Shown here: in pieces, positions 29,575-45,504 of the stretch
How the letters are laid out: each line of letters opens with the position of its first letter
Position numbering within the stretch: position 1 is the stretch's first letter
Notes under the pieces: model-generated
Databases searched by the model: none
What the model was told of the DNA's origin: nothing
The model's input: the letters and a program-made list of their open reading frames with translations, nothing else
Source of the DNA: a virus
Lineage: Duplodnaviria > Heunggongvirae > Uroviricota > Caudoviricetes
Reading direction: 5' to 3' (one strand)
Virus record (IMG/VR): IMGVR_UViG_3300011337_000467
Span: 31,723 to 95,722 of that record
Length of the DNA: 64,000 bases
Program-made: the position numbers and the translations under genes

Positions 29575-30567
29575 ATGATACAAGTAAATCCTTTTATTTT
29601 TTCAAGTTATTCAAGAGGAAGTACTGAGATTGCACACGACTGTGATCGACCGTTTAAAACTTTGACCGTCAATCTTGAGGGAAATTGTTTTTTATGTATA
29701 TGTGATGCATGGTTACCGGTTAGTGTAGGCAACGTACTCGATTTTGAATCACTGAGTGATATTTGGAACAATCCTATAGCACAGAAACTACAACAAACTG
29801 TCAAGGATCGTAAATTTACCTATTGTGCTGTAGATACGTGCGGTGTTATGGACAGAAATATAACAACACCGGACTACAGAATTAATTTTGCCATTGATGA
29901 TAGTTGCAATTTGGCCTGTCCAAGTTGTCGCGTCGGTGCTATTAACTATATCGAAGGCCCTGTGTTTGAACGTAAACTTGCACAGGTTAAACATTTTGTT
30001 AAACTGATTAATGAATTTACAGAACCGATGTCAATCGTTATGACAGGTAATGGTGATCCATTGGCCAGTTTGATCATGCGCCCATTGGTGTTAAATTGGA
30101 AACCAAAATCAAATCAAAGTGTTATACTTTTTACCAATGGATTGTTGATGAAAAAATTATTACCAGACAGTGGTATATTACCAAACATTCAAGAATTTCT
30201 AATTAGTGTAGATGCTGGTAGTAAAGAAGTTTACGAAGTAGTCAGGCGTCCTGGGCGGTTTGATGTACTACAGGATAATCTTAGTTGGTTATCTAAAAAC
30301 CGTAGACCGAACACAAATGTACTATTAAAATTTGTGTTACAATCAAAAAACTTTAATGATCTTGAAAACTTTTCTAATATGTGTCTTGAGTATGGATTTC
30401 TAGGAGAAGTTACTAAAATTGATAAATGGAATATCAAGGATTTTGATAGTCACGATGTTATTGGTAATAAGCAACATCCAAATCATGAATTGGCTGTACA
30501 AAAATTGCTCGAGATTTCAACATATAAACACATAACCATTGGATCGAGTCTTAAACAATTACTATGA
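29575..30567 (+). CDS. Radical SAM enzyme (subfamily A; N-terminal Cys-containing extension)
   Basis: 'DDSCNLACPSCRVG' CxxxCxxC and 'MTGNGDP' glycine motif. The N-terminal ~100 aa carry 'CFLCICDAW' and 'CAVDTC', analogous to 7847..8932. Confidence 0.6.
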   Translation: MIQVNPFIFSSYSRGSTEIAHDCDRPFKTLTVNLEGNCFLCICDAWLPVSVGNVLDFESLSDIWNNPIAQKLQQTVKDRKFTYCAVDTCGVMDRNITTPDYRINFAIDDSCNLACPSCRVGAINYIEGPVFERKLAQVKHFVKLINEFTEPMSIVMTGNGDPLASLIMRPLVLNWKPKSNQSVILFTNGLLMKKLLPDSGILPNIQEFLISVDAGSKEVYEVVRRPGRFDVLQDNLSWLSKNRRPNTNVLLKFVLQSKNFNDLENFSNMCLEYGFLGEVTKIDKWNIKDFDSHDVIGNKQHPNHELAVQKLLEISTYKHITIGSSLKQLL

Positions 30568-32114
30568 CACAAGATAACTTAACTACCAAGCAATTGGATT
30601 ACGCTGTGTTTCTTCCAGCCATCAGCGGATTCTATTCCACATTTGTGGGCAAGCAAAGGAATGAACAATATGTAGATCCCGCACGGTTTCCACAGGGCCT
30701 TACAGACATGGAACAGCTTAATTGGCTCAACTCCACCAAGGCTTTATTTCCGTATCGTTGGTCACTTGCGTCTGGAGGACATGCTAACCTCGATCTCTCA
30801 AAACAAGACTGGTCTGAGGACATGGTACGAAACCGAGAGCCTGGTACATTTCTCCTGGGCGACTCTGGTGGTTTCCAGATTGCCAAAGGTCTGTGGGAAG
30901 GTGATTGGAAGGCCAACTCAGGTTGTGCTAAAGCTCAAAAGAAACGCGAGCTTGTGCTTAATTGGCTGGACAATGTGTCTGATTACTGCATGACACTTGA
31001 TATTCCAACCTGGGTCATTCACGATAAAAAAGCCAGCAAGGCCTGTCAAATCTCCACACTGCAAGAAGCAGTAGACGCTACCAAGTTCAACAACGAATAC
31101 TTTATGAAACATCGTAAGGGTATTCGTAATGGTGGTACTAGGATTCTAAATGTATTGCAAGGCGACAACCACAGCAGTGCAGACCAATGGTACGAAACCA
31201 TGAAAGAATACTGTGATCCTGTCAAGTATCCAGACACACATTTTGACGGTTGGTCAATGGGTGGACAAAACATGTGTGACGTTCATTTGGTTCTACGTCG
31301 CCTGGTAGCCCTGCGCTATGACAATTTGTTGCAAGAAGGTGTGCATGATTGGATGCACTTCTTGGGCACATCAAAGTTAGAATGGGCTGTGCTACTGACC
31401 GTAATTCAACGAGCAGTTAGAAAATACGTTAATCCGGCTTTTACTATTAGTTTTGATTGTGCCAGTCCATTCCTTGCCACAGCCAACGGACAAGTGTATT
31501 ACGAAAATGTATTTGAACATGATTCAAAGTGGTCGTATCGCATGGGTCCTAGTGCCGACGATAAAAAATACAGCCTAGACACACGCAAGTGGTCAACTGG
31601 CGTGGTAGCAGATGGAATCTATCCACGCTGGGAAGACAGCCCACTAAGTGACTTGTTTCAGATGAAAGATATTTGCATTTACAAGCCCGGCGACCTAAAT
31701 AAGATTGGCAAAGAAGGCAAGACATCATGGGATTCATTCTCATATGCACTGCTGATGGGGCACAATGTTTGGATGCATCTAACTGCTGTGCAAGAAGCCA
31801 ATCGACGATTTGATGCAGGTGAACATCCTGCCATGATGCGCCGTAGCACAGGCGATTATGCTCGATTTGAAGACATTGTGGAAGCAATCTTTGCCGCACC
31901 AGATCGAGAAACTGCTGACGCTATTATTGAAACATATGATAGTTATTGGATGGAGATTGTGGGCACACGAGGATTCAAAGGTAAGAAGACCAAAAACGCT
32001 CGCACACAATTCAACGCACTGTTCTCTTTCGAACAACCAGAAGTTGACACAGAACCCGAAGACCAGTTACAATTAGAAGCATTACAACTGCTTGAAAGTG
32101 AGCAAATCAAATGA
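30564..32114 (+). CDS. dpdA: DpdA-like tRNA-guanine-transglycosylase-family protein (candidate DNA 7-deazaguanine transglycosylase)
   Basis: 'LLGDSGGFQI' matches the TGT catalytic DSGGFQ block. 516 aa. ATGA overlap with the upstream radical SAM gene. Confidence 0.55.
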   Translation: MTQDNLTTKQLDYAVFLPAISGFYSTFVGKQRNEQYVDPARFPQGLTDMEQLNWLNSTKALFPYRWSLASGGHANLDLSKQDWSEDMVRNREPGTFLLGDSGGFQIAKGLWEGDWKANSGCAKAQKKRELVLNWLDNVSDYCMTLDIPTWVIHDKKASKACQISTLQEAVDATKFNNEYFMKHRKGIRNGGTRILNVLQGDNHSSADQWYETMKEYCDPVKYPDTHFDGWSMGGQNMCDVHLVLRRLVALRYDNLLQEGVHDWMHFLGTSKLEWAVLLTVIQRAVRKYVNPAFTISFDCASPFLATANGQVYYENVFEHDSKWSYRMGPSADDKKYSLDTRKWSTGVVADGIYPRWEDSPLSDLFQMKDICIYKPGDLNKIGKEGKTSWDSFSYALLMGHNVWMHLTAVQEANRRFDAGEHPAMMRRSTGDYARFEDIVEAIFAAPDRETADAIIETYDSYWMEIVGTRGFKGKKTKNARTQFNALFSFEQPEVDTEPEDQLQLEALQLLESEQIK

Positions 32115-32644
32115 ATCGCCAAGGACACGCAGACACCAACTTCTTTGTAGGTACAGAAGTTGAGGCCAGCCCTGTTGCTGGACACCGCACATTGTTTGTG
32201 GTAGGATTGCAAACTGCATCAGATATTGACTGGAAGCGTGGCGAAATTGATGCACGATCAAAACTACCAATCACACACATCTATTTTGGTGCCAATCAAA
32301 GTTTTCCAAATCCCACTATCAATGATGCTGAAGCCTGGACTGCGTGGGAACGCATGATTCAACCGTGGTTGGACAAAGGATACTGGTGTACACTAGATCT
32401 TGATGTCAGTGCTGTGGAAGGCCTAGCTGAAGGCAGTTTGTGCGAACAGTCACAATTTATCCCAATGATATCTGTAAAACTACCTTACGTCAAACTGCTA
32501 GGTTACAATACCACAATCAAACTGGACGACAAAGATTTCAAAGCAACCAACCCCGGAGTATGGTGTCACAGCCTGCATAATTTGCTGGATAGAAAAACAT
32601 TTACCTCATGGGATCAATACACAAAGGACGAAGTAATCAAATGA
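32111..32644 (+). CDS. Hypothetical protein
   Basis: ATGA overlap with the dpdA-like gene; 177 aa. Confidence 0.4.
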   Translation: MNRQGHADTNFFVGTEVEASPVAGHRTLFVVGLQTASDIDWKRGEIDARSKLPITHIYFGANQSFPNPTINDAEAWTAWERMIQPWLDKGYWCTLDLDVSAVEGLAEGSLCEQSQFIPMISVKLPYVKLLGYNTTIKLDDKDFKATNPGVWCHSLHNLLDRKTFTSWDQYTKDEVIK

Positions 32645-33084
32645 TACAAGCTGAACGAGACACTGTAGAAAGAATCAAGCATGCCGCTCAAAGACAAATC
32701 TGGGTTACCTTCCAAAGAGAAGGCATCCACTGTTACCCAGCAGCCGCAACAGATCCAGCCCTTAAGACGGGCGATGAGTATGACGTTAGTTTCCTTGGTA
32801 CTCCTCACCGTCATATCTTCCACTTCCGGGTGTGGATTTCTGTTGTACACAATGATAGAGACATTGAATTCATCCAGTTCAAGCGATGGCTCGAAAAGCT
32901 CTACAAAGAAGGAACCATCCAACTTGACTACAAGTCATGTGAAATGATGTCGGACGATTTGTATTTGCAAATCGCTGGCAGGTATCCCGGACGCTCAGTC
33001 TGGATTGAGGTCTCTGAAGATGGTGAAAATGGAGCCCTTATTAAATATGAAACTCACCGCCCCAATATCAACATTGCTATCTAA
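32641..33084 (+). CDS. Hypothetical protein
   Basis: Start at the ATGA overlap (32641); 147 aa. Confidence 0.4.
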   Translation: MIQAERDTVERIKHAAQRQIWVTFQREGIHCYPAAATDPALKTGDEYDVSFLGTPHRHIFHFRVWISVVHNDRDIEFIQFKRWLEKLYKEGTIQLDYKSCEMMSDDLYLQIAGRYPGRSVWIEVSEDGENGALIKYETHRPNINIAI

Positions 33085-33095
33085 TAGGAAACAAA

Positions 33096-33317
33096 ATGGC
33101 AAAAATTACATACAAATCTAATCCCCGCGTGATTGAAATCCAAGAAGACTTGGAAAAACTTTTGGAGTTCTGTCAGGACTATGGTTACCGTTACAATGAG
33201 GCCGATTTGTACAACTTTAAGAGTTATGCGTGGCAACAGTTTAACAAATACTCACAAGGCAAAAACGCCAAGAACATGTGGGACGAAGACACTCGTCGCT
33301 TTGCCGGAAGATACTAA
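33096..33317 (+). CDS. Small hypothetical protein
   Basis: 73-aa ORF in the 12-nt gap after the previous gene. Confidence 0.35.
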   Translation: MAKITYKSNPRVIEIQEDLEKLLEFCQDYGYRYNEADLYNFKSYAWQQFNKYSQGKNAKNMWDEDTRRFAGRY

Positions 33318-34531
33318 TGAGAAAACTATTCTACATGGGCTTGGAAAGTTATGAAGCCCGCTACACACTGCAACTGACAGAATGGAATCGACGTGTGTTT
33401 GACCGCAGAGGACTAGATGTTGTGTATGTGCCTGGCACCACAATCGACAACACACAAGCCATCTCGGTAGGCCAGGTGTTGGACGCACACGGACGCAGTT
33501 ACTTTGCCATGAGCCAGATGATGAACTTGGTTCAGCTCATGAAGAACGGTGATGTAACTGGTGATGATGTGATCTACTTTGAAGACATGTTCCAACCAGG
33601 CTTTGAAAGTCTTGGCTACATCATGAACCAGATTCCACAAGAACAATGTCCAAAGATCTATGTTCGTTGTTTGGCACAGGCCATTGATCCTGATGACTTC
33701 GTGCATGTGTGGGGAATGGCAAAGTGGATGAACTTGTATGAACAAATGGTCAATGAGATGGTGGCTTTCTCGGGGGGTGCAGTATTGGCTACCAATGAAG
33801 AAATGGTCGCGCACATGCGCATCGCTGGATGGACTGCTCCAATCTACAACATTTCCGGCCTGGCATTTGGCAAATCAGAAGTTCTGGAGAGAATTGGCGG
33901 AACGGGAAATATCACGCCGTTTGCTTCGCGTCCGCGGAGGGTGGGTTTCGCAGCAAGGTTCGATCAAGAGAAGCAACCTGGCTTCTTTATGGACCTCATT
34001 GAGATGTATGGTGAGCTCACCAGCGAGCCATGTGAGTTTGCAATATACAGTGGCGGACCTCTCCGATCCAACAATCCAGAGTATATTGAACGTGCCCGCC
34101 GTATGGAGGCACAAGGCAAGCTCAAAATCTACGACAACATAAGCAAAAATGAATACTATGCTCATCTTAACAATACTCGTGTGTTGTTTAATTGTGCTTT
34201 ACAAGATTGGGTTTCAAACACCGTATCAGAGGCCGATACTCTTGGATGCAATGTGTTATATCCAGCGTATCGCAGTTTTCCTGAAACCTTCGCAAACGAT
34301 CCCAATAGACTGTATATTCCCTGGAGCATAGATGATGCTTATCACAAAATGCAAAACCTACTTCGCGAGCCGCACCACAACATGGGACTTATTTCCGACT
34401 GGAACAATTCCACTGTGGATCGTGTTGTGGATATTATTAGCGGTGTGGGTGAGCAATGGAATAGAGCGGGCAATCGCTATCGTGACCACGCTTCTCACGA
34501 AAAATATCAAGTTGTAAAGATCGAAGCATGA
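33317..34531 (+). CDS. GT-B (GT4-like) glycosyltransferase
   Basis: 'FAARFDQEKQPGFFMDLIE' resembles the GT4 'GRL.x.KG...L..A' donor-binding block. Start chosen at Met 'MRKLFY' (ATGA overlap). Confidence 0.5.
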   Translation: MRKLFYMGLESYEARYTLQLTEWNRRVFDRRGLDVVYVPGTTIDNTQAISVGQVLDAHGRSYFAMSQMMNLVQLMKNGDVTGDDVIYFEDMFQPGFESLGYIMNQIPQEQCPKIYVRCLAQAIDPDDFVHVWGMAKWMNLYEQMVNEMVAFSGGAVLATNEEMVAHMRIAGWTAPIYNISGLAFGKSEVLERIGGTGNITPFASRPRRVGFAARFDQEKQPGFFMDLIEMYGELTSEPCEFAIYSGGPLRSNNPEYIERARRMEAQGKLKIYDNISKNEYYAHLNNTRVLFNCALQDWVSNTVSEADTLGCNVLYPAYRSFPETFANDPNRLYIPWSIDDAYHKMQNLLREPHHNMGLISDWNNSTVDRVVDIISGVGEQWNRAGNRYRDHASHEKYQVVKIEA

Positions 34532-35490
34532 TTGTAATTGTAACCGGCTCAGCTGGATATATTGGTGGTCAGACCATGCTCACATTGAAAGATGCTGGGC
34601 ATACAGTGTACGGCATTGACCGTAGAGATCCTCCCAAGCATCTTCAAGGTGTGCCCGACGGATTCTTGTGTGAAGATTTTTCTACTGATACTGCCCTAAG
34701 TTGGATCATACAAAAACAACCCAATGCTATTATCCATTGTGCTGGCACCAGTCTTGTGGGTCCTTCAGTAAAGAATCCTTCAGAATACTACAACAACAAT
34801 GTGGCCAAAACATTGAAGTTGTTGGACATTGTTAAACAAAGCATGCCTCGTTGTAAGTTGGTGTTTAGTTCTAGTGCTGCCACATACGGCGAACCTATCA
34901 TGAATCCCATACACGAAGTGGATCCTAAAGAGCCTGTCAGTCCGTATGGTGAATCTAAACTGATGATTGACATGATGCTGGAAAGCTATCACCGGGCATA
35001 CGGTCTTGACTATGTGAGCTTTCGTTACTTCAATGCTTGTGGTGCCGATCCTGAAGGTAGGCACGGACAAGAGCCAGGTGCCACACACTTGATTGCTAAA
35101 TTTTTAGAGGCCACAAGAGATGATGGACAGTTCAGAATATATGGTGATGATTACCCTACTGCTGATGGTACTTGCATTCGCGATTATGTGCATGTGGATG
35201 ATATCGCCCGAGCCCACGCTTTGGCGTTGTATCACAAAATCCCTGCAGGGGTCTACAACCTTGGATCAAATCAAGGGTTCAGTGTCAAACAGGTAATAGA
35301 GCAGGCAAAAACTATCACTGGCAAGATGCCTCACATTGGCACAGAGGCTCGTCGAGCAGGCGATCCACCTGAACTGATTGCAAGTCCAGACAAGTTTAAC
35401 CTGGTTGCAGGGGCTTGGCGGCATCATGATTTAGATGACATGATTCAACACGCATGGAACTGGTATGTTCGACAAGATAAAAAAGTTTGA
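34528..35490 (+). CDS. NAD-dependent sugar epimerase/dehydratase (GalE-like short-chain dehydrogenase)
   Basis: 'VTGSAGYIGG' Rossmann motif and 'SPYGESK' catalytic YxxxK. 320 aa. Confidence 0.8.
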   Translation: MIVIVTGSAGYIGGQTMLTLKDAGHTVYGIDRRDPPKHLQGVPDGFLCEDFSTDTALSWIIQKQPNAIIHCAGTSLVGPSVKNPSEYYNNNVAKTLKLLDIVKQSMPRCKLVFSSSAATYGEPIMNPIHEVDPKEPVSPYGESKLMIDMMLESYHRAYGLDYVSFRYFNACGADPEGRHGQEPGATHLIAKFLEATRDDGQFRIYGDDYPTADGTCIRDYVHVDDIARAHALALYHKIPAGVYNLGSNQGFSVKQVIEQAKTITGKMPHIGTEARRAGDPPELIASPDKFNLVAGAWRHHDLDDMIQHAWNWYVRQDKKV

Positions 35491-36061
35491 AGACGAACTA
35501 GCAGAGTTCACAGGAGCACCGTATGCTGTCATGACTGATTGCTGTACACATGCCATTGAACTTTGCTTGCGATATAATCGAGTGAGAGAAGTTGTAATGA
35601 CTCCATATACCTATCTCAGCATACCTATGACCATGCACAAATTGGGTATCAAATACTACTACCGAGAAGAGGAGTGGACCGGCGAATATCGGTTCCATGG
35701 CACCCGCATATGGGACTCGGCTCGTAGACTCGAATCAGGCATGTATCGCCTGGGTACCATGCAGTGTTTGAGCTTTGGCCATAACAAGCCATTGGCAATT
35801 GGGCATGGTGGTGCCATATTGTTAGATGACAAGATAGCATATGAAACTATATTGCGTCAACGCTATGATGGCAGAGACTTAACTGTGGTTCCGTGGCAAG
35901 ACCAAAAGACTTTTCATGTGGGCTATCATTACAAACCCAGTATCGAAGATGCTGTTCAAGGTATGGCATTGTTGCAAGGTGTCAAAGAACACAATCCCAA
36001 ACCCGTACATGTGCCATACCCTGACTTGAGAAATATCAAAATCGTTGACGATTCCGTCTAA
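35465..36061 (+). CDS. Short DegT/DnrJ/EryC1-like (sugar aminotransferase fold) protein
   Basis: 'ELAEFTGAPYAVMTDCCTHAIELCL' resembles the DegT N-terminal block and 'SFGHNKPLAIGHGGAIL' the SFxxxK PLP-lysine block. At 198 aa it is only about half the size of canonical DegT enzymes. Confidence 0.35.
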   Translation: MFDKIKKFEDELAEFTGAPYAVMTDCCTHAIELCLRYNRVREVVMTPYTYLSIPMTMHKLGIKYYYREEEWTGEYRFHGTRIWDSARRLESGMYRLGTMQCLSFGHNKPLAIGHGGAILLDDKIAYETILRQRYDGRDLTVVPWQDQKTFHVGYHYKPSIEDAVQGMALLQGVKEHNPKPVHVPYPDLRNIKIVDDSV

Positions 36062-36113: not shown

Positions 36114-36806
36114 TTGGAAAAACACTTATCACAAGTCCTTCGCGAACAGATGAAGGCAGAAGGCAAAAGATTTTGGGCAGGAGACAACATCAGTGAGTAT
36201 GTTGATGAAGAGACCAAACACAGTTTAATCAACGAAGCTACCAACGCATTTGAACAAGTGCTTGATGTATTACTAATCGACAGGGAAAATGATCCAAACT
36301 CAAAAGGTACCGCACAGCGTCTTGCCAAAATGTACTTCAATGAAATTATGGCTGGCCGTTATGAGGAGAGCCCTAATGCTACAGCGTTTCCAAATGACAC
36401 AGAAGGAGCGTACGAAGGTATGTTGGTGGTGCGTTCAGAGCTTAAGAGCATGTGTAGCCATCATCACCAACCTGTTACGGGTGTGGCTTATATTGGAATC
36501 ATTGCTGGACCCGTGCTCATTGGTCTATCCAAGTACACGCGGATCGCGCAGTGGTGTGCAAGACGTGGGACTCTCCAAGAAGAACTATGTATGGATATTG
36601 CTCGCGAAATTGAATTTGCGACCGGGTCAAAAGATGTCGCAGTTTATATTCAAGCTACCCATGGTTGTTGTGAGAATCGCGGTATCATGGCACACTCTAG
36701 TCTTACACAAACCACAGTTTTACACGGTGCGTTTAAGTCAGACCAAAGCGTGAAGAAAGAATTCTTTGACAACATCAAACTACAACAGGACTTTGCACCA
36801 CGATGA
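36114..36806 (+). CDS. folE: GTP cyclohydrolase I (FolE)
   Basis: 'TAQRLAKMYFNEIMAG' and 'MCSHHHQPV' match FolE blocks (TPKRVAKMY / CEHH). TTG start with a GGAG Shine-Dalgarno 8 nt upstream. Confidence 0.75.
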   Translation: MEKHLSQVLREQMKAEGKRFWAGDNISEYVDEETKHSLINEATNAFEQVLDVLLIDRENDPNSKGTAQRLAKMYFNEIMAGRYEESPNATAFPNDTEGAYEGMLVVRSELKSMCSHHHQPVTGVAYIGIIAGPVLIGLSKYTRIAQWCARRGTLQEELCMDIAREIEFATGSKDVAVYIQATHGCCENRGIMAHSSLTQTTVLHGAFKSDQSVKKEFFDNIKLQQDFAPR

Positions 36807-36916: not shown

Positions 36917-37243
36917 ATGACTCGAAAAAAACCAAAGGTATCCGAAGCAGAACTGGCAGCAGCTCTTGAAGAGTTGAAACAGGAATTTGAAGCATTAACT
37001 ACAGAGGAAAATCAAATGGCAAAATCAAAAACAAAGGCCGCAGGGTCTGTTAAAAAACTCAGCGACAAGTTGACCAAGGTCAATGAAAACTTTACCATCA
37101 ACATGTATGACAATGGCTACATGATCGAGGTGGGCGGCAGAGACGACGAAGACAACTGGAAGACTGCCAAGATCATTGTTGACACTGTGGAAGAACTGTT
37201 GTTGTTGGTTCGCGAAGCAACTGAAATTGAGCGAGCAGACTAA
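36917..37243 (+). CDS. Small acidic coiled-coil protein
   Basis: 108 aa, E/K-rich N-terminal helix, acidic C-terminus. Confidence 0.4.
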   Translation: MTRKKPKVSEAELAAALEELKQEFEALTTEENQMAKSKTKAAGSVKKLSDKLTKVNENFTINMYDNGYMIEVGGRDDEDNWKTAKIIVDTVEELLLLVREATEIERAD

Positions 37244-37626: not shown

Positions 37627-38546
37627 CCCTACCATTACAGCCTGAATTGATTGGACGGCCTTATGCGCCGGCTGAATGTGTTGTGGAGCAACAGCAACTT
37701 GATCTAACCCATCAAGTGTTGCAATCTACTGCACTTAACAACTTGGGCGATTCAGTAGTACCCGACTACTGTGCTCAATTTCAAAATTGGATTTTGAGCA
37801 GCCAACTAAACACTGTGACTGGGTTGGATACATTGCCAGTTGTGGCATTTAGTCAAGGCACTACAGAAGCCTTTGATAATTTTTATATCCGACATCATGA
37901 TCGACGGTTTAGAGTATTTCGTGGAGAATACATCTATCACAAACGTATATGGCAGCGTCACTATGCAGACCAATGGACGTTTATAGATGTTGATGATATC
38001 AAAACAAATGATGCAGTGATTGTGAGTTGGCCATTTGCTGATACCGGAAACACACACGAACATTTTAATCAGAAGTTCTTGGACAAGTGTTATGAATTGG
38101 GCGTGCCTGTACTGATTGACGCTGCCTTCTTTGGTGTGTGCGCAAATCAACATTATGACTTTTCTCATCCAGCTATTCAAGAGGTGGTGTTTAGTCTTAG
38201 CAAAAGTTTTCCGGTAAATGCCTTGCGTATTGGTATTAGATTTGCTAGAGAAGATTTTGAAGACGGCATGCAAATCTATCACAGCACTCAGTACGTAAAC
38301 AAGTTATCGGCTGCAATTGGTCTCAAATTAATGGCCAGTAGAAATCCAGATACCACGTTTACCAAATGGCGTTCTAAACAATTGGAGTTTTGCAATCAGT
38401 TAGATCTTGAACCAAGTGATACAGTACTGTTTGGCATAGACACCGAGCACAAATATGATCACTACAATCGTGGCAGTTTGCAAACCAATAGATTGTGTTT
38501 TAGTCGCTACTATGAGTCTGGAAAGTTAGTAGTAGATGAGCGTTAA
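37623..38546 (+). CDS. Enzyme of uncertain family (PLP-aminotransferase-like 'SLSKSFP' block or amidotransferase-like 'GVCANQ'), translationally coupled to the PP-loop gene
   Basis: ATGA overlap upstream, and its 3' end overlaps the next start by 11 nt. The motifs are only partial matches. Confidence 0.35.
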   Translation: MTLPLQPELIGRPYAPAECVVEQQQLDLTHQVLQSTALNNLGDSVVPDYCAQFQNWILSSQLNTVTGLDTLPVVAFSQGTTEAFDNFYIRHHDRRFRVFRGEYIYHKRIWQRHYADQWTFIDVDDIKTNDAVIVSWPFADTGNTHEHFNQKFLDKCYELGVPVLIDAAFFGVCANQHYDFSHPAIQEVVFSLSKSFPVNALRIGIRFAREDFEDGMQIYHSTQYVNKLSAAIGLKLMASRNPDTTFTKWRSKQLEFCNQLDLEPSDTVLFGIDTEHKYDHYNRGSLQTNRLCFSRYYESGKLVVDER

Positions 38547-39369
38547 CACATGGCATCCAGCTGGCCATAATGGCTGGTGCAGTGTAAATCTTACACCTGA
38601 ACAGTTTTCATTTCGAGTTAACAATCCTGCTACTGAAGAATTGGATTTTCAATCAGCATGTGACATTGCTGCACAAATGCTATGCCAGGAGTGGAGCAAC
38701 CGGCCACTATATCTCAGCCTTAGTGGCGGACTCGACAGTGAATTGATTGCCAACACTTTTGTTAGAAACCATATTTCATTTACACCAGTGATCCTTCAAG
38801 TTAGCAATCTCAATGCCGCAGAGTCTTGGTATGCTGAATATTGGTGCCAACAACACAACGTAACTCCGTTAATTAAAACAGTAACTATTTCTGAGTATGA
38901 GGACATTGTTAAAAAGTATTTGTTAGTGTTAAGAAACACTCACCAAACTGGTATTGTAGCTAATTTATATCTAGCTGACGAAATTCAAGCTCTTGGCGGA
39001 TACTATGTAAATGGTGTGGGTGATATCAATCAAGATCAAGATCAAGATCACTTTTATTGTAACATTGTGGACTTTGCGTTAGATGTGTTTAGATCCGGTC
39101 AACACCCTACAGGATTTTTTATGTATACTGCCGAATTAGCATTGGCATATATCAAAATGTTTGATTCAGCAATAAATGAGCAGTATAATAAACTAAGATT
39201 TTATAATGTGTCGCCAAGGCCTAAAATTGCCTGGGTAGAACAAGTGATTTCTAGTAGTACACGACTGTTTCGCATGTTAGACTTTTGGTATACACATGTA
39301 CCAAATTCTCAACCACACCAGTTTGGTAACAAACAAGATGTAATCAACGTATTAAAAGGAGTTAAATGA
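38536..39369 (+). CDS. PP-loop ATP pyrophosphatase (QueC-like / adenine-nucleotide alpha-hydrolase superfamily)
   Basis: 'LYLSLSGGLDSELIA' SGGxDS PP-loop near the N-terminus. No C-terminal CxxC...C zinc site as in canonical QueC. Confidence 0.55.
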   Translation: MSVNTWHPAGHNGWCSVNLTPEQFSFRVNNPATEELDFQSACDIAAQMLCQEWSNRPLYLSLSGGLDSELIANTFVRNHISFTPVILQVSNLNAAESWYAEYWCQQHNVTPLIKTVTISEYEDIVKKYLLVLRNTHQTGIVANLYLADEIQALGGYYVNGVGDINQDQDQDHFYCNIVDFALDVFRSGQHPTGFFMYTAELALAYIKMFDSAINEQYNKLRFYNVSPRPKIAWVEQVISSSTRLFRMLDFWYTHVPNSQPHQFGNKQDVINVLKGVK

Positions 39370-39761
39370 CTGATTTAGAAATTGCACGTCAACAAGGCAT
39401 TGCACCCTGGGACGACCGTGTGGAAGAACTTTCGGACTTTCATGTAGCTGCGTTCCGTGATCGCTTTCCAGTAACTTCAGGACATTTGTTGTTTGTGCCA
39501 CAATACAATACTGATGATGTAATCATGGAATGTTTTGAATCAGCCATGTTGCATGGTCGGCGTATGGTAGCTGATGGCAAGTGTGATGCGTTCAACATTG
39601 GCATCAACATGGGGCGAGAAGCAGGGCAAACTGTAATGTATCCGCATGTGCATTTGATTCCACGACGTGTGGGCGATTGTGCAGATCCTGTGGGTGGGGT
39701 ACGTGGAGTTATTCACGGACAAGCCAACTACAAAACAACAGGCTATCAACAACCTGCATAA
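39366..39761 (+). CDS. HIT-family (histidine-triad) nucleotide hydrolase/transferase-like protein
   Basis: 'AFRDRFPVTSGHLLFVPQ' and 'GQTVMYPHVHLIPR' match HIT blocks. The triad is degenerate (HVHLI instead of HxHxH). ATGA overlap with the upstream gene. Confidence 0.55.
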   Translation: MTDLEIARQQGIAPWDDRVEELSDFHVAAFRDRFPVTSGHLLFVPQYNTDDVIMECFESAMLHGRRMVADGKCDAFNIGINMGREAGQTVMYPHVHLIPRRVGDCADPVGGVRGVIHGQANYKTTGYQQPA

Positions 39762-39826: not shown

Positions 39827-39844
39827 GTCATAGGAGGACAAATA

Positions 39845-40342
39845 ATGCAACCGATAACATACAAATTTACTTCAACCAAAGAGTACCATGACGCATTTCC
39901 ATGTGCGTATAGACAGTGGAGGGCTGACAGCCACTGCAATCTAATTCATGGTTACAGTTTTTCGATGAAGTTTTACTTTGGCACAGACAACCTGGATGTA
40001 CGCAATTGGGCAGCCGATTATGGTGGTCTCAAAGAACTCAAGAAGCAATTGGAAGATCAATTTGATCATACCTTACTAGTATCTGCAGATGATCCAGAGC
40101 TGGAAACATACAAGCTCTTGCAAGAGAAGAAAATGGCCAAACTCACCATCCTACCACGGCTGGGCTGTGAAGGCCTAGCAGACATGCTGTACAAGTATGT
40201 GAACGGTGTTTACATTCCGGACCTGTGGGGACCGGGTGAAGCAGAGCGTCTCTGGTGCTATCGTGTAGAAGTGCGTGAAACACAGAGCAACATGGCTTTC
40301 CGAGAAGGCCATCGCGAGTGGATGGAAGATCTGTTCGTTTAA
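39845..40342 (+). CDS. queD: 6-carboxy-5,6,7,8-tetrahydropterin synthase (QueD/PTPS fold)
   Basis: 'CNLIHGYSF' (CxxxHGH-type zinc motif) and 'DHTLL' (DHxxLN-like). Start at Met 39845 with a GGAGG Shine-Dalgarno. Confidence 0.65.
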   Translation: MQPITYKFTSTKEYHDAFPCAYRQWRADSHCNLIHGYSFSMKFYFGTDNLDVRNWAADYGGLKELKKQLEDQFDHTLLVSADDPELETYKLLQEKKMAKLTILPRLGCEGLADMLYKYVNGVYIPDLWGPGEAERLWCYRVEVRETQSNMAFREGHREWMEDLFV

Positions 40343-40359: not shown

Positions 40360-40986
40360 ATGTTAGATCGAATCTTAAATGGTGTTGACCGTGCATTGGC
40401 CTACAAGCTCATGCTGGCACATATCATTATTATTGCTGTTAGCAATTACATCGTGCAATTTAAATTCTCAGTGTTTGGTGCACCATTGGCAGCAGCCGCG
40501 TTCACATTTCCACTAGTGGTTGTGTTGACCGACTTGACTGTGCGAATGTTAGGCAAACAAACTGGTCGTGCCGTGATTGCCTTGGCATTCATCCCTGCCA
40601 TCATTGTATCAATGGCGGTAGTCAAATTAGGCGGTGCTCCTGACTCAGTGGCTTTCCGGATTGGTCTTGGTTCAGGTGTTGCATACTTTGTGAGCAATTT
40701 GCTTGATGTGTACGTGTTCCAATACATTCGTGAGAAGTATGCTACTTGGTGGATTGCACCTGCGTTGAGTTCAATTGTGAGCACATTCTTTGATACCTAT
40801 GTGTTCTTCTTTACTGCATTTGCCGGTGGTGCCAATGAGTTTATGGCTGCTAACTGGCACATTGTTGCAACCAACAATTCAATCAGCAAAGTCATTGTGA
40901 GCTTATTGGTTATCCTACCTGCTTATGGATTGTTGTTGAGTCACTTGCAGAAAAAAATAGTAGAAGATATTAAACAACCTAACTAA
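40360..40986 (+). CDS. yhhQ: YhhQ/Vut-family queuosine-precursor (preQ0/preQ1) transporter
   Basis: 'AVSNYIVQ', 'FTFPLVVVLTDLTVR' and ~6 TM segments match the YhhQ (DUF165) pattern ('SSNYLVQ...FLATDLTVR') closely. Confidence 0.75.
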   Translation: MLDRILNGVDRALAYKLMLAHIIIIAVSNYIVQFKFSVFGAPLAAAAFTFPLVVVLTDLTVRMLGKQTGRAVIALAFIPAIIVSMAVVKLGGAPDSVAFRIGLGSGVAYFVSNLLDVYVFQYIREKYATWWIAPALSSIVSTFFDTYVFFFTAFAGGANEFMAANWHIVATNNSISKVIVSLLVILPAYGLLLSHLQKKIVEDIKQPN

Positions 40987-41069: not shown

Positions 41070-43043
41070 ATGAACAAAAAAACAATAAGTTTTGTACAGC
41101 CCAACTTTCAACAAGGGCCTAAAGAATTCAATGCCTACTACTTGCCGTATTCTGCAGGTGTGATTTTGAGTTACGCCTTTGGGTTTGAGCATATTAAAAA
41201 TGCCTGGGAAATTGATGAATTAATTTGGCGTAGAGAGCCCATTGAAGAAGCAGCCGCAAGATTGCAACACAATGACATTGTGGCGTTTAGTGCCTATGTA
41301 TGGAATCACAGATACAACTACAAACTAGCACGTCGAATCAAAGAACTCAATCCCAAAGTAAAAATTATATTTGGTGGACCCGAGCCTGCTATTACGGATC
41401 CTGAATTGTTTGTGAAAGAACCTTTCATGGATCTTGTGAGCAAGATGGAAGGCGAGATCACATTCAAACGCATCCTAGAAGATTTTGACACAGACTTTAC
41501 GCACATTCCTGGCTTGTTGATTAACACACCAGCAGGGCTAGTAGACACTGGAGATTGTGCCAGAATCGACAATCTAGATCAAATCCCCAGTCCTTACCTT
41601 GCCGGCATCTTTGATCGAATCATAGCTGAAAATCCTGATGTAATTTGGAATGCTACATTGGAAACCAATCGCGGTTGCCCTTATCAGTGTACCTTTTGTG
41701 ACTGGGGCAGTCTCACTTACAACAAGGTCAAGAAATTTGAACTCACTAGAGTGTTCCATGAATTAGAATGGATTGGTCGCCATTGCGGATTTGTCACAAT
41801 CACAGATGCCAACTTTGGCATGTTCATTGAACGTGACAACATGATTGTGGACAAGTTGATTGAAGTACAAAAGCAATGGGCCAAGCTGGCGTCATTTTCT
41901 ATGACATGGGCCAAGAATCAAAAGAACGAAGTAGTGGGCATTGTAAAGAAATTGATCGACGAAAGCCCCAACTTTGGTCAAGGCCTTACTGTGAGTGTGC
42001 AAAGCATGGACCACGATGTGTTGGAAAACATCAAGCGTAGAAATCTTGATCAACACAAGATTGACGAAATCTTTGCTTTGTGTGATCGCAACAATATTCC
42101 TGTGTACACAGAAGTTATCTTGGGCTTGCCAGGTGAAACTGTGGAAACTTGGAAAAATGCTTTTTGGCAAATCTTCCGTGCAGGTAACCATACTGGTGTG
42201 AACATTCTCCAAGCGCAGTTGTTGGAAAATGCCGAGATGAATCTCTTGCAAAAACGAATGTGGAAGCTGGATTCAGTGCCAGTGTATGACTACATGAGTG
42301 GCAGCTATGGTGATGTAGACATGGACGAGTGTGTGGATGTTGTGGTAGGAACCAAAGACATTCCACGAGAAATGATGTTGGACACACTGGTATGGAACAG
42401 TTTTATTCAAACTTTTCACATCAACGGGTTGACCACGTACATTGCTAGATACTTGGCCAAAGCTCATGACATTGACTACAGTGAGTTCTACGACAGTTTG
42501 TACAAGTATATTGAAAGCGATGCATGGTTTCAACAACAGTTTGATGAGACACGCAGTTACTTTAGAAACTGGACCACAGACGGTCGTATCAATCATCCTC
42601 GAATTGGCAACATCGAAGTGTTTGGATGGAATCTTGTGCATCGAACCACTTTGTATATGCAACAGCAACAAAAGATCAATCATGTGTTCGATATCATTGA
42701 CAACTTTGTAAGAACCACGTATACTATTGACAGCAACATACTAAATCAGTTGTTGCAGTTTCAGAGAAACTATGTGATTGATTACAAAGATTTACCAGCA
42801 TTGCCAATTCAACAAAAGTTTGACTATGACTTTCTTGGATATCTACTGGACGATGCTGACATCAACACACCATGCTTGTACAAATTTGACAGCGTGGAAG
42901 ATAAAACCATGAGCATGGATCGGTTCTTAGAGAACATGTATTTTGCTCGCAAGCGGAATTTTGGAAAAACAACAATAACAAAAACTAATTCAGCCAACTT
43001 ACCTGAAATAGAATATGACAACAGAGAACTTATTACCCCTTGA
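41070..43043 (+). CDS. Class B (cobalamin-binding) radical SAM enzyme
   Basis: N-terminal B12-binding-like region (IVAFSAYVWNH...KIIFGGPEP) followed by 'NRGCPYQCTFCDW' CxxxCxxC. 657 aa. Confidence 0.65.
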   Translation: MNKKTISFVQPNFQQGPKEFNAYYLPYSAGVILSYAFGFEHIKNAWEIDELIWRREPIEEAAARLQHNDIVAFSAYVWNHRYNYKLARRIKELNPKVKIIFGGPEPAITDPELFVKEPFMDLVSKMEGEITFKRILEDFDTDFTHIPGLLINTPAGLVDTGDCARIDNLDQIPSPYLAGIFDRIIAENPDVIWNATLETNRGCPYQCTFCDWGSLTYNKVKKFELTRVFHELEWIGRHCGFVTITDANFGMFIERDNMIVDKLIEVQKQWAKLASFSMTWAKNQKNEVVGIVKKLIDESPNFGQGLTVSVQSMDHDVLENIKRRNLDQHKIDEIFALCDRNNIPVYTEVILGLPGETVETWKNAFWQIFRAGNHTGVNILQAQLLENAEMNLLQKRMWKLDSVPVYDYMSGSYGDVDMDECVDVVVGTKDIPREMMLDTLVWNSFIQTFHINGLTTYIARYLAKAHDIDYSEFYDSLYKYIESDAWFQQQFDETRSYFRNWTTDGRINHPRIGNIEVFGWNLVHRTTLYMQQQQKINHVFDIIDNFVRTTYTIDSNILNQLLQFQRNYVIDYKDLPALPIQQKFDYDFLGYLLDDADINTPCLYKFDSVEDKTMSMDRFLENMYFARKRNFGKTTITKTNSANLPEIEYDNRELITP

Positions 43044-43872
43044 CAATCCCATCGACATCAGTATTTTATTGCCCACTCGTGGCAGACCAAAACCACTAGA
43101 ACAATGCCTACGCACTCTACTTGACCGGGCCAAAGACCCCAGTCGAATAGAAGTGATGTTGGCATTTGATAATGATGATAGTGAAAACATCAAACACTTT
43201 GTGGATGTCGTACAACCTTATCTTGATGACCTTGGTGTAGAATACAGCGCCATACAGTTTGAAAGATTAGGGTACATGCGACTAAACGAGTACCTTAACG
43301 AGTTGGCCAAGCACAGTCAAGGCTCTTGGTTGTTCTTTTGGAATGACGATGCTGTGATGAAAACACAGGATTGGGATCAGGTGATTCGAGACAACGGGCA
43401 AGAATTCAATTTGCTCCGTGCCGAAACCAATCACGAACACCCTTATGCTATCTTTCCTATCCTGCCAAAGAAGTGGGTGGAAATTACTGGCCATTTGAGT
43501 CCGCATCAAATCAACGATGCCTGGACCAGCCAAGTGGCTTGGATGTTGGATATTGTGAAAACAATTCCTGTAATGGTACACCATGAACGCTATGATCTTA
43601 CTGGCGAGAACTTGGATGAAACATTCAAAGAACGTATCATGTTGGAAAACATGCCCGGCAATGATCCTAGAGATTTCAATCACATTACCTGGCGCAAACG
43701 CAGGGTTGAAGAAACTGAAAAAATTGCAGACTATCTTGACAGCATAGGCCGCGATACCACGTGGTTTAGAGATTCAATGACCGGTAAAAATCCAAACATC
43801 TGGGCCAGAATGGTCCTGCAAGATCCACACAAACGATTAAGACAATGGAAGGACAGTCCCTTTGAGCAATGA
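43015..43872 (+). CDS. GT-A fold (GT2-like) glycosyltransferase
   Basis: 'ISILLPTRGRP..L..CL.TLL....DPSRIEVMLAFDNDDSE' matches the GT2 N-terminal block with a DxD-like 'DNDD'. Start may lie a few codons later since it overlaps the radical SAM stop. Confidence 0.5.
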   Translation: MTTENLLPLDNPIDISILLPTRGRPKPLEQCLRTLLDRAKDPSRIEVMLAFDNDDSENIKHFVDVVQPYLDDLGVEYSAIQFERLGYMRLNEYLNELAKHSQGSWLFFWNDDAVMKTQDWDQVIRDNGQEFNLLRAETNHEHPYAIFPILPKKWVEITGHLSPHQINDAWTSQVAWMLDIVKTIPVMVHHERYDLTGENLDETFKERIMLENMPGNDPRDFNHITWRKRRVEETEKIADYLDSIGRDTTWFRDSMTGKNPNIWARMVLQDPHKRLRQWKDSPFEQ

Positions 43873-44635
43873 ACTAATAGACAAGATTGTGCAGTACTGG
43901 GATCGCCAGCCCTGTAACATCAACCACAGCGCCAGTGAAGTTGGTACTGAACAATTCTTTAACGAGAATAGCGAAAAACGCTACTTTGTTGAACCACATC
44001 TCAAAGATCTAGCACAGTTTCATTTGTATGCTGGCAAACGTGTGTTAGAAATTGGATGTGGCATTGGTGCCGATGCAGCTGAGTTTGCCAAGCATGGTGC
44101 CGAGTATGTTGGTATCGATCTCAGCAGTGAAAGCATTGCATTGGCCCGGAAACGATTTGAAGTTTTGGGACTGGAAGGTCAATTCATTCAAGGTAGCGGC
44201 GATGATGACTTGTCACACTTGGGCAAATTTGATTTGGTTTACAGTTGTGGTGTGTTACATCACTATCCAGACATTGATCGTGTGATTGAAAACATACACA
44301 GTTTGACCGTGGACGGTGGCGAGTTCAAAATGCTAGTGTATGCTCGTGACAGTTGGAAGTATGCCATGATCCAAAAAGGTCTGGACCAATACGAAGCACA
44401 AGCCGGATGTCCGTATGCCAAAGCCTACACAAAAGAAGAAGTCTATCAGTTGCTAGAGGGCAAATTCCATATCGGACGCATTAGACAAGCGCATTGTTTC
44501 ATGTATAATGTACCTAAGTACAAGCAAGGTATCTATGAACTGGAACCTTGGTTTGCGGCAATGAGCGAAGAAATGCGTCAAGCAGTTCGCGAATACTTGG
44601 GTTGGCATCTACTGGTTAAAGCAACAAAAATATGA
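43862..44635 (+). CDS. Class I SAM-dependent methyltransferase
   Basis: 'VLEIGCGIGADAAEFAKHGAEYVGIDLS' motif I/II and 'LVYSCGVLHH' motif IV-like block. Confidence 0.7.
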   Translation: MSNELIDKIVQYWDRQPCNINHSASEVGTEQFFNENSEKRYFVEPHLKDLAQFHLYAGKRVLEIGCGIGADAAEFAKHGAEYVGIDLSSESIALARKRFEVLGLEGQFIQGSGDDDLSHLGKFDLVYSCGVLHHYPDIDRVIENIHSLTVDGGEFKMLVYARDSWKYAMIQKGLDQYEAQAGCPYAKAYTKEEVYQLLEGKFHIGRIRQAHCFMYNVPKYKQGIYELEPWFAAMSEEMRQAVREYLGWHLLVKATKI

Positions 44636-45504
44636 AATTAAAAGTTAGTGAGTTATTTTATTCTGCACAGGGCGAAGGACGCTTTGTTGGTGTTCCTTCA
44701 GTGTTCCTACGCACATACGGATGCAACTTCACTTGCTCAGGCTTTGGCTGCGCTCCGGGCGTACAGTCTACCGAAGCAGACCAAGTGGCAAAGAACATAC
44801 ACCTGTACAAGGATTTTCTTGAACTGCCGCTTGTGAACACCGGATGTGATAGCTACGCTTCGTGGCATCCTGCATTTAAGGAACTAAGTCACACACTCAC
44901 ACATGATGAACTGATTGAAAAGATGTTGGTTCTTACACCCAATCATCACTGGCAACAAGACAACGGCAATGATGTGCATCTTGTGATCACAGGTGGTGAA
45001 CCGCTGTTGGGTTGGCAGCGTGGATACGAAGAACTGCTGTCGCAAGGCAGTATGGGTGACTTAAAGAACATCACATTCGAAACCAATGGCACTCAAAAGT
45101 TACAGCCAGCATTTCGAACATTTTTGCACGAATGGCGTCGCCCTGCACTAGGGGCCGTGCCCACGCGAGAAATTACTTTCTCAGTAAGTCCCAAGCTATC
45201 AGCGTCAGGCGAATCGTGGTCGGATGCTATCAAGCCCGAGATTGTGGCAGACTATCAAATGCATGGCACAGTATATTTAAAATTTGTGGTAGAAACACTG
45301 GCACACTTTGAAGAAGTTGATCGTGCTGTGGCTGCATATCGTGAAGCAGGTTTCCGTGGTGTTACCTATGTGATGCCACAAGGCGGTGTGGTCACTCCAT
45401 ACGAACGCAACCGAGTGAATGTAGCTGACTGGGCACTGGCTCGTGGTTATAACTATAGCCCAAGATTGCATGTGGATCTCTGGGGCAATGGCTGGGGCAA
45501 ATAA
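44632..45504 (+). CDS. queE: 7-carboxy-7-deazaguanine synthase-like radical SAM enzyme (QueE family)
   Basis: 'SELFYSAQGEGRFVGVPSVFLRTYGCNFTCSGFGC', 'VITGGEP' and 'FSVSPKL' parallel the E. coli QueE blocks. ATGA overlap with the methyltransferase gene. Confidence 0.65.
   Translation: MKLKVSELFYSAQGEGRFVGVPSVFLRTYGCNFTCSGFGCAPGVQSTEADQVAKNIHLYKDFLELPLVNTGCDSYASWHPAFKELSHTLTHDELIEKMLVLTPNHHWQQDNGNDVHLVITGGEPLLGWQRGYEELLSQGSMGDLKNITFETNGTQKLQPAFRTFLHEWRRPALGAVPTREITFSVSPKLSASGESWSDAIKPEIVADYQMHGTVYLKFVVETLAHFEEVDRAVAAYREAGFRGVTYVMPQGGVVTPYERNRVNVADWALARGYNYSPRLHVDLWGNGWGK

Follow-up and report, generated by a model that had tools for sequence, protein, structure and literature searches.

A 64,000-nucleotide stretch of Caudoviricetes DNA (IMG/VR record IMGVR_UViG_3300011337_000467, positions 31,723 to 95,722; here called the window) carries a compact island of 7-deazaguanine pathway genes. 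This island probably encodes a DNA-modification system of the DpdL type, lacking QueC and situated among the replication genes of a jumbo phage, whose product is a 7-deazaguanine-type base other than 7-cyano-7-deazaguanine (preQ0). Protection from restriction is the likely function of the modified base. Phage 7-deazaguanine DNA modification is already established, and in that respect the headline is not new. An earlier reading of the letters by themselves (the sequence-only reading) had described a preQ0-type Dpd system and noncanonical virion DNA. Its core stands, in that the phage encodes a 7-deazaguanine pathway with a DpdA-type transglycosylase, and modified DNA is the likely outcome of such genes in a replication module. 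The preQ0 label, for system and base alike, is not supported, as no QueC was detected in the window and a DpdL homolog is present. That reading also did not include the DpdL homolog, a GT4 glycosyltransferase, and a conserved 177-aa protein.

The viral identity of the window is evident from a family-B DNA polymerase (phrog_262, 2.6e-193), a 5'-3' exonuclease, matches to virion proteins, and three tRNAs, and related contigs point to a jumbo-phage genome of about 350 kb. Our view of this uncultured phage is confined to these 64 kb. The island lies between the polymerase and the exonuclease, inside the DNA-replication module, and nearly all long open reading frames (ORFs) of the region are on the + strand. 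Positions 30564-45504 run exactly from the start of a gene encoding a DSGGFQ motif to the stop codon of the QueE gene and hold ~21 densely packed genes, most of them overlapping or <20 bp apart, with many 4-bp stop/start overlaps and a largest gap of 110 bp. In a scan for terminators and promoters, terminator-like sites occurred at chance (18 seen versus 16.3 expected), and promoter-like sites showed a slight, uninformative enrichment. With the entire block as megablast query, none of 50,697 phage records matched, and there is thus no close cultured relative. The seven core genes are as follows.

30564..32114, + strand: DpdA-like transglycosylase of predicted tRNA-guanine transglycosylase (TGT) fold, 516 aa; GDSGGFQ (D100) and SFDxxSP (D298), both invariant
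32111..32644, + strand: conserved 177-aa partner protein; 4-bp overlap with the stop codon of the DpdA-like gene
32608..33084, + strand: DpdL homolog, a QueD-paralog T-fold protein; phrog_17812, 4e-35; real start possibly the ATG at 32641
33317..34531, + strand: probable GT-B/GT4 glycosyltransferase; family-level match to PF00534; recurrent near DpdL/DpdA
36114..36806, + strand: GTP cyclohydrolase I, FolE; PF01227, 1.3e-38; NF006824, 5e-41
39842..40342, + strand: QueD (6-carboxytetrahydropterin synthase), phage CxxxHGY variant; PF01242, 2.3e-16; phrog_2389, 6.9e-36
44632..45504, + strand: QueE-like protein (7-carboxy-7-deazaguanine synthase), phage clade; phrog_2076, 4.9e-52, full length

Homology supports the first three steps, and of the enzymes named by the sequence-only reading FolE and QueD were recovered as such and QueE as a QueE-like protein. 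FolE would convert GTP to 7,8-dihydroneopterin triphosphate, QueD would produce 6-carboxytetrahydropterin from it, and QueE would form 7-carboxy-7-deazaguanine (CDG). FolE scored 132.7 bits against PF01227 (cutoff, 27) and matched NCBIfam equivalogs at 1e-34 to 1e-41, below their strict cutoffs. QueD scored 60 bits against PF01242 (cutoff, 22), matched phrog_2389 ("QueD-like"), scored below the TIGR03367 cutoff, and is 52% identical to the QueD of phage ACP17. QueE is 30-32% identical to the QueE proteins of PA5oct and Vibrio phage 2.275.O. NCBIfam equivalogs cover only its residues 2-51, far below cutoff, because CNFTC is followed by an insert of ~36 residues before the third aligned cysteine of the radical S-adenosylmethionine (SAM) motif, leaving approximately the first 50 residues to be matched; the GGEP motif is present. 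The insert is common to PA5oct, X1, and BUCT-ZZ01 (and to the QueE genes of L001, L013, and L014), and the QueE proteins of ACP17 and phiST are without it. The QueD motif, CxxxHGY rather than CxxxHGH, is common to all phage QueDs compared (phiST, ACP17, BUCT-ZZ01, and pf16). We considered and rejected HGY as a sign of inactivity, as phiST, whose DNA is fully (100%) 2'-deoxy-7-deazaguanine (dDG) (PMC10516641), has HGY too. Because these motif departures are shared with reference phage proteins, including those of phiST, they are not read as defects.

The pathway would then pass through DpdL. The homolog in the window carries LGTPHRHIF, which fits the definition of DpdL as a QueD paralog whose CxxxHGH is changed to LxxxHRHxF (PMC10516641). 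This motif is kept in ACP17, X1, BUCT-ZZ01, phiST, and the related contigs L006 and L009, and the protein shares 57% identity with ACP17 gp125 and 32.5% (E 3e-17) with the founding DpdL, phiST CGPG_00067. DpdL has been reported in phages that have DpdA, FolE, QueD, and QueE but no QueC, and it is the proposed CDG decarboxylase on the way to dDG (PMC10516641). The window homolog would likewise act on CDG, decarboxylation to 7-deazaguanine being the step proposed in the literature.

The DSGGFQ protein, which the sequence-only reading had placed in the TGT/DpdA family, lies outside every curated model, yet belongs to that superfamily by Foldseek and hhalign. As a single sequence and as a profile, it matched no family at E<=0.01 in Pfam, PHROGs, NCBIfam, or PDB sequences; neither PF01702, the curated TGT model, nor DUF6610 (for DpdA4) matched, and the family profile retrieved no TGT from PDB sequences. 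The sole hit, to an anti-CRISPR protein (E 0.16), was spurious. Fold comparison was therefore needed. A 67-sequence alignment covering both family branches served as input for an AlphaFold2 model (predicted local distance difference test [pLDDT] score, 85.6; predicted template modeling [pTM] score, 0.87). All 23 Foldseek hits in the PDB with E<=1e-3 were TGT, QTRT1/2, or the archaeal enzyme ArcTGT (best 7e-8, probability 1.0), and a gap separated the TGT hits (E<=7e-4) from unrelated TIM barrels, which began at E 9e-3. Invariant across the 67 sequences, down to 33% identity, are GDSGGFQ (D100), LDxP, HxLG, and SFD (D298), with LNVLQG and GWxxGG nearly so. By analogy with TGT, we take D100 to be the general acid/base and D298 the nucleophile. 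Judged by its modeled fold and catalytic motifs, the protein is a member of the TGT/DpdA superfamily. From this fold, the invariant aspartates, and the gene context, we infer that it would exchange guanine for a deazapurine in double-stranded phage DNA, after replication, by way of D100 and D298.

Within the superfamily, sequence comparison indicates a separate clade that is captured by no curated model and whose nearest subfamily is DpdA2. Our DpdA2 representative was ACP17 gp123, a homolog of nt-1 YP_008125322, to which the name DpdA2 was given (PMC6884629). By hhalign, the window family aligned with DpdA2 at 86.5% probability (E 4.6e-6) over 207 columns, from DSGGFQ through SFD, with DSGGFQ (D100) opposite DSGGLQ and SFD opposite SYD in DpdA2. 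The same method gave 85% for DpdA2 against E. coli TGT and 24% for the window family against the single E. coli TGT sequence, where SFD falls opposite MFD, an alignment that serves as illustration and not as proof. BLASTP against ACP17 gp123 gave only E 0.017, and tblastn with gp123 retrieved neither the PA5oct group nor any other member of the window clade; tblastn of nt-1 DpdA2 against plasmids gave no match, a result without relevance here. phiST DpdA3 (259 aa), which is without DSGGFQ, showed no similarity by BLAST and a weak hhalign match (62% over 94 columns). The canonical TGT zinc site, CxCxxC...H, is absent from the DpdA-like protein and also from the DpdA2 alignment; of the cysteines at positions 121, 142, 161, 217, 238, 299, and 371, only C371 is nearly invariant.

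This clade is large. Among 8,000 candidates scored, 7,311 clusters (defined at 90% identity) matched at E<=0.001, metagenomic and unannotated, with some members on contigs of 346-359 kb. The cultured members, all annotated as hypothetical proteins, are those of the PA5oct group (35% identity), Sinorhizobium phage Phosso (29%), and Vibrio phage 2.275.O (34%, partial coverage), and in PA5oct and 2.275.O they neighbor QueE, DpdL, QueC, or QueF. Relative to the published scheme, as far as it was accessible, a DpdA-like clade of >7,000 clusters, on contigs of up to ~360 kb and invisible to Pfam, PHROGs, and NCBIfam, is new. Because it is invisible to hidden Markov models (HMMs), surveys based on DpdA signatures will arrive at too low a number of modified phages and miss, among others, the PA5oct group of therapeutic candidates.

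As the nearest solved structures are tRNA enzymes and the phage encodes tRNAs, it could be supposed that the TGT-fold enzyme acts on phage or host tRNA, or that the pathway feeds the nucleotide pool with no exchange in DNA. We consider this very improbable. The tRNAs of the window (Met, Arg, and Leu) are not of the queuosine family (Asp, Asn, His, and Tyr; PMC12518689), and the window has no QueA, QueG, or QueF to finish queuosine. Further, the gene lies in the replication module, its closest relatives of known function, the DpdA2 enzymes, have been shown to modify DNA (PMC10516641, Table 2), and PA5oct DNA is restriction resistant (PMC12191111).

Two further genes bear on whether the inserted base might be preQ0.

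38536..39369, + strand: stand-alone PP-loop protein, probable AsnB-type amide synthetase, the "QueC-like" protein of the sequence-only reading
40360..40986, + strand: YhhQ/COG1738 queuosine-precursor transporter; PF02592, TIGR00697; NF008406, 6.9e-49

The PP-loop protein is probably an AsnB-type amide synthetase and not QueC. No QueC HMM matched it (Pfam and NCBIfam, E<=0.01), and a few of its homologs gave a weak match to PF00733 (Asn_synthase) instead. The C-terminal Cys4 zinc motif of QueC (TCYD..C..CP.C), invariant in phage QueCs, is absent from its family, whose one invariant cysteine is C104. Its SGGLDS sequence (SGGxDS PP-loop motif, residues 63-68) is invariant, but this motif is common to the whole PP-loop superfamily. 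QueC came only 22nd in the structural ranking, in which the comparison figures were 13.6 for human ASNS, 12.9 for beta-lactam synthetase, and 12.4 for carbapenam synthetase, and hhalign against QueC reached 39% probability, over the PP-loop only. A tblastn search of cultured phages with this protein found no match. HMM searches left this protein outside the QueC models and the DSGGFQ protein outside the TGT models, which is part of the outcome that the sequence-only reading had named as refuting it; structural and profile-profile comparison rescued the TGT/DpdA assignment.

In a preQ0-type Dpd system, this enzyme would be a non-orthologous QueC (CDG to 7-amido-7-deazaguanine [ADG] to preQ0), or preQ0 would come from the host or through YhhQ, and DpdA would insert it. 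A PP-loop ATP-pyrophosphatase that adenylates a carboxylate chemically suits the first QueC half-reaction, YhhQ belongs to a preQ0/preQ1 transporter family, and in Vibrio phage 2.275.O a member of the DpdA clade is encoded along with QueC and QueF. To our knowledge, AsnB-type enzymes make amides, and nitrile formation by them is unprecedented. QueC, QueF, Gat, and QueA were not detectable within the window. PA5oct has the same core without QueC and without a PP-loop homolog, and none of QueC, QueF, an amidotransferase, or canonical TGT was found at E<=0.01 in its complete 286,783-bp genome, nor was QueA detected there. Together with the presence of DpdL, known from phages lacking QueC, these results make the preQ0 route improbable. 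The YhhQ call itself was sound, with scores above cutoff for PF02592 (78 bits; cutoff, 27.2) and TIGR00697 (100.4 bits; cutoff, 50.95). Related contigs are without YhhQ, so that the salvage attributed to it, import of a deazapurine precursor, would be an optional extra.

Two proteins appear to accompany the deazaguanine core as obligate-looking partners. The GT4 family matched PF00534 in 7/7 members at E<=1 (best, 8e-12; window copy alone, E 0.057), its profile found group-1 glycosyltransferases in the PDB (7ec7, 1.9e-5), and R..EK.P and E305 are invariant. A homolog occurs in 23 cultured-phage records, 18 of which also have DpdL, and it lies adjacent to or within ~3 kb of DpdL in ACP17, Phosso, the PA5oct group, X1/BUDD, BCSR5, and BUCT-ZZ01. 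The pairing is therefore found in six independent lineages besides that of the window. The 177-aa protein is 28% identical to ACP17 gp122, which adjoins DpdA2, and 45% identical to PA5oct EST35_0364. Its family comprises 503 representative clusters, and a 57-sequence profile found no credible Pfam or PDB homology; hits to picornavirus VP2 (E 0.006-1) were judged spurious. Longer members (260-350 aa; P0330, P0341, P0364, P0380, and others) have low-complexity, disordered C-terminal tails and no informative fused domain. These tails end in a conserved peptide, AAxAYAEGAxxDPLG...KK, that could be a docking or targeting motif.

The likeliest part for GT4 is to act further on the modified base or on the DNA itself. 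Plain 7-deazaguanine has no obvious sugar acceptor; thus, either systems with GT4 make something other than plain dDG, or the two partner proteins have their place elsewhere, perhaps as accessory subunits. The DpdL and DpdA pairs of ACP17 and phiST gave no dDG in E. coli, for which the authors suggested missing enzymes as the cause (PMC10516641). Relative to the published scheme, as far as it was accessible, the recurrence of GT4 and the 177-aa protein alongside DpdL and DpdA in unrelated phages is new, and their involvement would explain this failed reconstitution. Their role is directly testable in the cultured phages PA5oct, ACP17, and X1.

Comparison with known systems places the island closest to Acidovorax phage ACP17, Xanthomonas phage X1, and Synechococcus phage BUCT-ZZ01 (DpdA2 plus DpdL; DpdL was named in PMC10516641). 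These have the same FolE, QueD (CxxxHGY), QueE, DpdL, and TGT-fold transglycosylase, no QueC nearby, and the same GT4 by DpdL/DpdA; ACP17 also has the 177-aa partner. The window differs in a transglycosylase that is ~100 aa longer, is not a BLAST-level DpdA2, and belongs to its own clade, and it adds ~12 accessory enzymes, YhhQ, and MetK. The Pseudomonas jumbo phage PA5oct (Wroclawvirus) shares the DpdA-like clade of the window (35% identity) and its backbone order, namely DNA polymerase, 240-aa protein, DpdA-like, GT4, DpdL, QueE, 128-aa protein, and exonuclease. Its complete genome has homologs of all seven core genes, with FolE, QueD, and the 177-aa gene encoded away from the DpdA-like locus, and is without the AsnB-type ligase, PLP (pyridoxal phosphate) enzymes, full-length GalE, GT2, B12-dependent radical-SAM enzyme, HIT, YhhQ, and MetK. 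The DNA of PA5oct is restriction resistant at G-containing sites; the authors of that work inferred modified G and noted QueE and a PTPS (6-pyruvoyltetrahydropterin synthase)-fold protein and, as far as the text was accessible, neither named a transglycosylase (annotated there as "hypothetical") nor ran mass spectrometry on PA5oct (PMC12191111). In the PA5oct record MK797984.1, two genes annotated as hypothetical are homologs of window proteins: 171501-171971 (EST35_0258) of the phage-type QueD (33.5% identity) and 252640-253146 (EST35_0364) of the 177-aa partner (45%). Not counting DpdL, the PTPS-fold genes of PA5oct thus number two, and three loci share its deazaguanine genes among them.

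Cellulophaga phage phiST (DpdA3 plus DpdL) has the same QueC-less FolE/QueD/QueE/DpdL set as the window; it differs in DpdA3, and neither GT4 nor the 177-aa partner occurs in the 14 kb of its locus that were examined. The DpdA1/QueC systems (Enterobacteria phage 9g and CAjan; 2'-deoxyarchaeosine [dG+] or deoxy-preQ0 [dPreQ0]) and the bacterial Dpd cluster share the GTP-to-CDG enzymes, a DNA guanine transglycosylase, and an anti-restriction purpose. Those systems need QueC (and Gat-QueC or QueF) for preQ0 and the archaeosine base (G+), whereas the window has DpdL, no QueC, and no DpdB- or DpdC-type partners. Campylobacter phage CP220 (DpdA3; deoxy-ADG) stops at CDG without canonical QueC, and its ADG amide needs another enzyme (PMC10516641). 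An AsnB-type amide synthetase could in principle perform such an amidation, although the DpdA subfamily of CP220 differs from that of the window. Vibrio phage 2.275.O (L003) encodes, at 11905-18931, a member of the window's DpdA clade (596 aa, with a large insertion, "hypothetical" in the record), followed by QueF, YhhQ, QueC, an Ntn amidotransferase, and FolE. The clade thus also serves preQ1/G+-type pathways.

Interleaved with the core, or close to it, are the following further genes.

29575..30567, + strand: radical-SAM/SPASM enzyme; PF13186, PF04055; 4-bp overlap with the DpdA-like start; specific to the window lineage
33096..33317, + strand: 73-aa conserved protein; same position in related contigs L006 and L009
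34528..35490, + strand: UDP-glucose 4-epimerase GalE; TIGR01179, 302 bits (cutoff, 262); PF01370, 1.4e-51
35465..36061, + strand: compact DegT/DnrJ/EryC1-type PLP sugar-aminotransferase-like protein, 198 aa; PF01041, 1.7e-16; SFGHNK lysine motif
36917-37626: two small ORFs, 108 and 127 aa (the second strongly acidic), between FolE and the next PLP enzyme
37623..38546, + strand: class I/II aminotransferase-fold PLP enzyme, 307 aa; PF00155, 2.2e-5; SLSKSF lysine motif
39366..39761, + strand: HIT-family nucleotide hydrolase/transferase; PF01230, 1.1e-10; HinT-like, 4e-12
41070..43043, + strand: B12-binding radical-SAM enzyme, KedN5-like C-methyltransferase family; PF02310, PF04055; NF033712, 2.1e-64 (below cutoff)
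43015..43872, + strand: GT2-family glycosyltransferase; PF00535, 4.1e-6
43862..44635, + strand: class I SAM-dependent methyltransferase; PF08242, PF13649, and PF13847, ~1e-19
45762..46862, + strand: S-adenosylmethionine synthetase MetK; three MetK Pfam domains, 1e-33 to 1e-58
47255..47731, + strand: sugar-phosphate nucleotidyltransferase (RfaE domain II/TagD-like); PF01467, 2.7e-10; TIGR02199, 3.2e-22

In related contigs (PP-loop protein 40-44% identical; L006 and L009), most of this block is kept gene for gene, a point in favor of the system proposed here. YhhQ, MetK, and the SPASM enzyme are missing from the relatives, the last at its position in L006, L009, and L016. Two GT2 paralogs occur there, one at the position of YhhQ in the window, and in L006/L009 FolE is directly followed by HIT, with no counterpart of the two small ORFs. 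The 307-aa PLP enzyme, nearest CobD (1.3e-9) and HisC, always adjoins the PP-loop gene in relatives, and in every variant seen this pair stays beside FolE or the PTPS gene. The 198-aa DegT-like ORF was considered as a pseudogene fragment, and this was rejected, as its size (198-201 aa) is kept in relatives. MetK is a probable source of SAM for the radical-SAM and methyltransferase enzymes and would top up the cellular supply. In L016 and L017 (GCA_013573075.1 and GCA_013565695.1; ~7100-14200 of L016), genes for an Hc1 histone-like protein, a fatty-acid-hydroxylase-family protein, and a DAO-type FAD oxidase lie between the PTPS gene and a QueE-sized gene, in place of the B12-dependent radical-SAM, DegT, and HIT genes. 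This swap implies a different tailoring chemistry in sister lineages.

What the accessory enzymes act on is less certain. They may tailor the modified base or a sugar attached to it, but as the linkage is synteny in one viral lineage and other glycan and radical-SAM genes lie elsewhere, we consider this rather less likely than not. More specifically, the deazapurine could be decorated beyond the described derivatives, for example by AsnB-type amidation of the CDG carboxylate with an amine or amino sugar from the PLP enzymes and GalE, by glycosylation through GT4 or GT2, or by C- or N-methylation through the B12-dependent radical-SAM enzyme or the methyltransferase, a proposal that we regard as tentative. 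GT4 is repeatedly and tightly linked to DpdL/DpdA in seven lineages, the accessory genes are placed one by one among FolE, QueD, and QueE with 4-bp overlaps, and this arrangement is kept in diverged relatives. CDG is the sole pathway intermediate with a carboxylate (PMC10516641). The AsnB-type ligase could, speculatively, amidate that carboxylate, analogous to QueC-family amide chemistry, for which Cap9, a QueC-family PP-loop enzyme, gives a precedent of amides made from CDG. Galactosyl- and mannosyl-queuosine in vertebrate tRNA are precedents for a sugar on a 7-deazaguanine derivative (PMC12518689), and glucosyl-hydroxymethylcytosine of T4 is one for GT-B enzymes that decorate phage DNA bases after replication (PMC13216743). 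The failure of DpdL and DpdA pairs to yield dDG in E. coli, with missing enzymes suspected, would fit as well. On the other hand, PA5oct and ACP17 are without the accessory block, the exchange of genes in L016 indicates that the chemistry is not fixed, and no single molecule could undergo both DpdL decarboxylation and amide ligation, since the two would use the same carboxylate. In phiST the product is plain dDG, and the 14-kb locus examined has no GT4 gene. The acceptors in the queuosine and T4 cases are a cyclopentenediol and a hydroxymethyl group, and none such is predicted in the window system.

Alternatively, an unrelated glycan or small-molecule pathway (such as glycosylation of virion proteins or the host envelope) may lie among the deazaguanine genes, with only the seven core genes acting on DNA, which we count as a substantial minority possibility. 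GalE, DegT, GT2, and the nucleotidyltransferase are of types familiar from polysaccharide synthesis, PA5oct and ACP17 have the core without the accessory genes, and more glycan and radical-SAM genes (PIG-L, two DUF6492, and three more radical-SAM) lie far from the block. Yet the genes are interleaved singly with FolE, QueD, and QueE, with overlapping stop and start codons, rather than grouped apart, and the PP-loop/PLP pair holds its place beside the PTPS or FolE gene throughout.

Amide-ligase, PLP, sugar, and methylation genes set among those of the core hint at additional chemistry on a purine base that the published scheme, as far as it was accessible, does not describe. We found no paper describing glycosylated 7-deazaguanines in DNA; tRNA examples exist (PMC12518689). 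It is conceivable, though doubtful, that DpdL systems go beyond plain 7-deazaguanine, with GT4 as a required third catalytic partner and the accessory enzymes of this lineage building a glycosylated and/or amide-linked 7-deazaguanine in DNA. If true, phage genomes would gain their first example of a purine hypermodification that bears a sugar, carried by a widespread clade of uncultured jumbo phages and inserted by a DpdA subfamily that HMMs miss. The identity of the base matters for restriction and CRISPR evasion, for sensing by type IV and END nucleases, and for artefacts in metagenome sequencing.

Several points weigh against the DpdL-type, QueC-less system that we favor. As only 64 kb are visible, QueC could lie elsewhere or come from the host. 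Decarboxylation by DpdL is a proposal, and the E. coli experiments with ACP17 and phiST pairs did not yield its expected product. The occurrence of the DpdA clade beside QueC, QueF, and an amidotransferase in Vibrio phage 2.275.O indicates that it is not tied to one substrate, and YhhQ, known for preQ0/preQ1 transport, would fit a preQ0 substrate. A role for GT4 is at odds with a scheme that ends in plain dDG. For the amide ligase and the sugar and PLP genes, the tie to the pathway is conserved order in one lineage only, and the window has other glycan and radical-SAM genes outside the block. Finally, the system is predicted here from genes alone, in an uncultured phage.

Elsewhere in the window, some features were noted in their own right. 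Six radical-SAM enzymes are encoded in 64 kb, at 7763-8932, 21061-22173(-), 29575-30567, 41070-43043, 44632-45504, and 50795-51820; two are of the SPASM type and one is B12 dependent, and those at 29575-30567 and 50795-51820 both match phrog_21308. Few phages would be expected to have them at such density, and the window encodes MetK as well. Outside the block, carbohydrate-type genes for a PIG-L family de-N-acetylase and two DUF6492 proteins (17005-18326 and 20168-21097[-]) hint at another module concerned with glycans.

A 240-aa protein (28849-29571, + strand; phrog_12062) is encoded between the polymerase gene and that of the DpdA-like enzyme, with homologs in the same placement in PA5oct (gp314, 37% identity) and Vibrio phage 2.275.O (32%). 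PA5oct gp314 is annotated as a structural protein from mass spectrometry data; its size and polymerase-side position would also fit a replication accessory protein. A full DnaJ (J domain and C-terminal domain) followed by a 759-aa ATP-dependent protease (phrog_4871, 3.5e-239) is encoded at 1913-5036. PA5oct likewise encodes DnaJ and Clp/FtsH components, and a phage-borne proteostasis set is seemingly common to both. The tRNA cluster of the window, tRNA-Met(CAT), tRNA-Arg(TCT), and tRNA-Leu(TAA), lies at 63594-63851, and the annotated tRNA region of PA5oct has tRNA-Met, tRNA-Leu(UUA), and tRNA-Arg(AGA).

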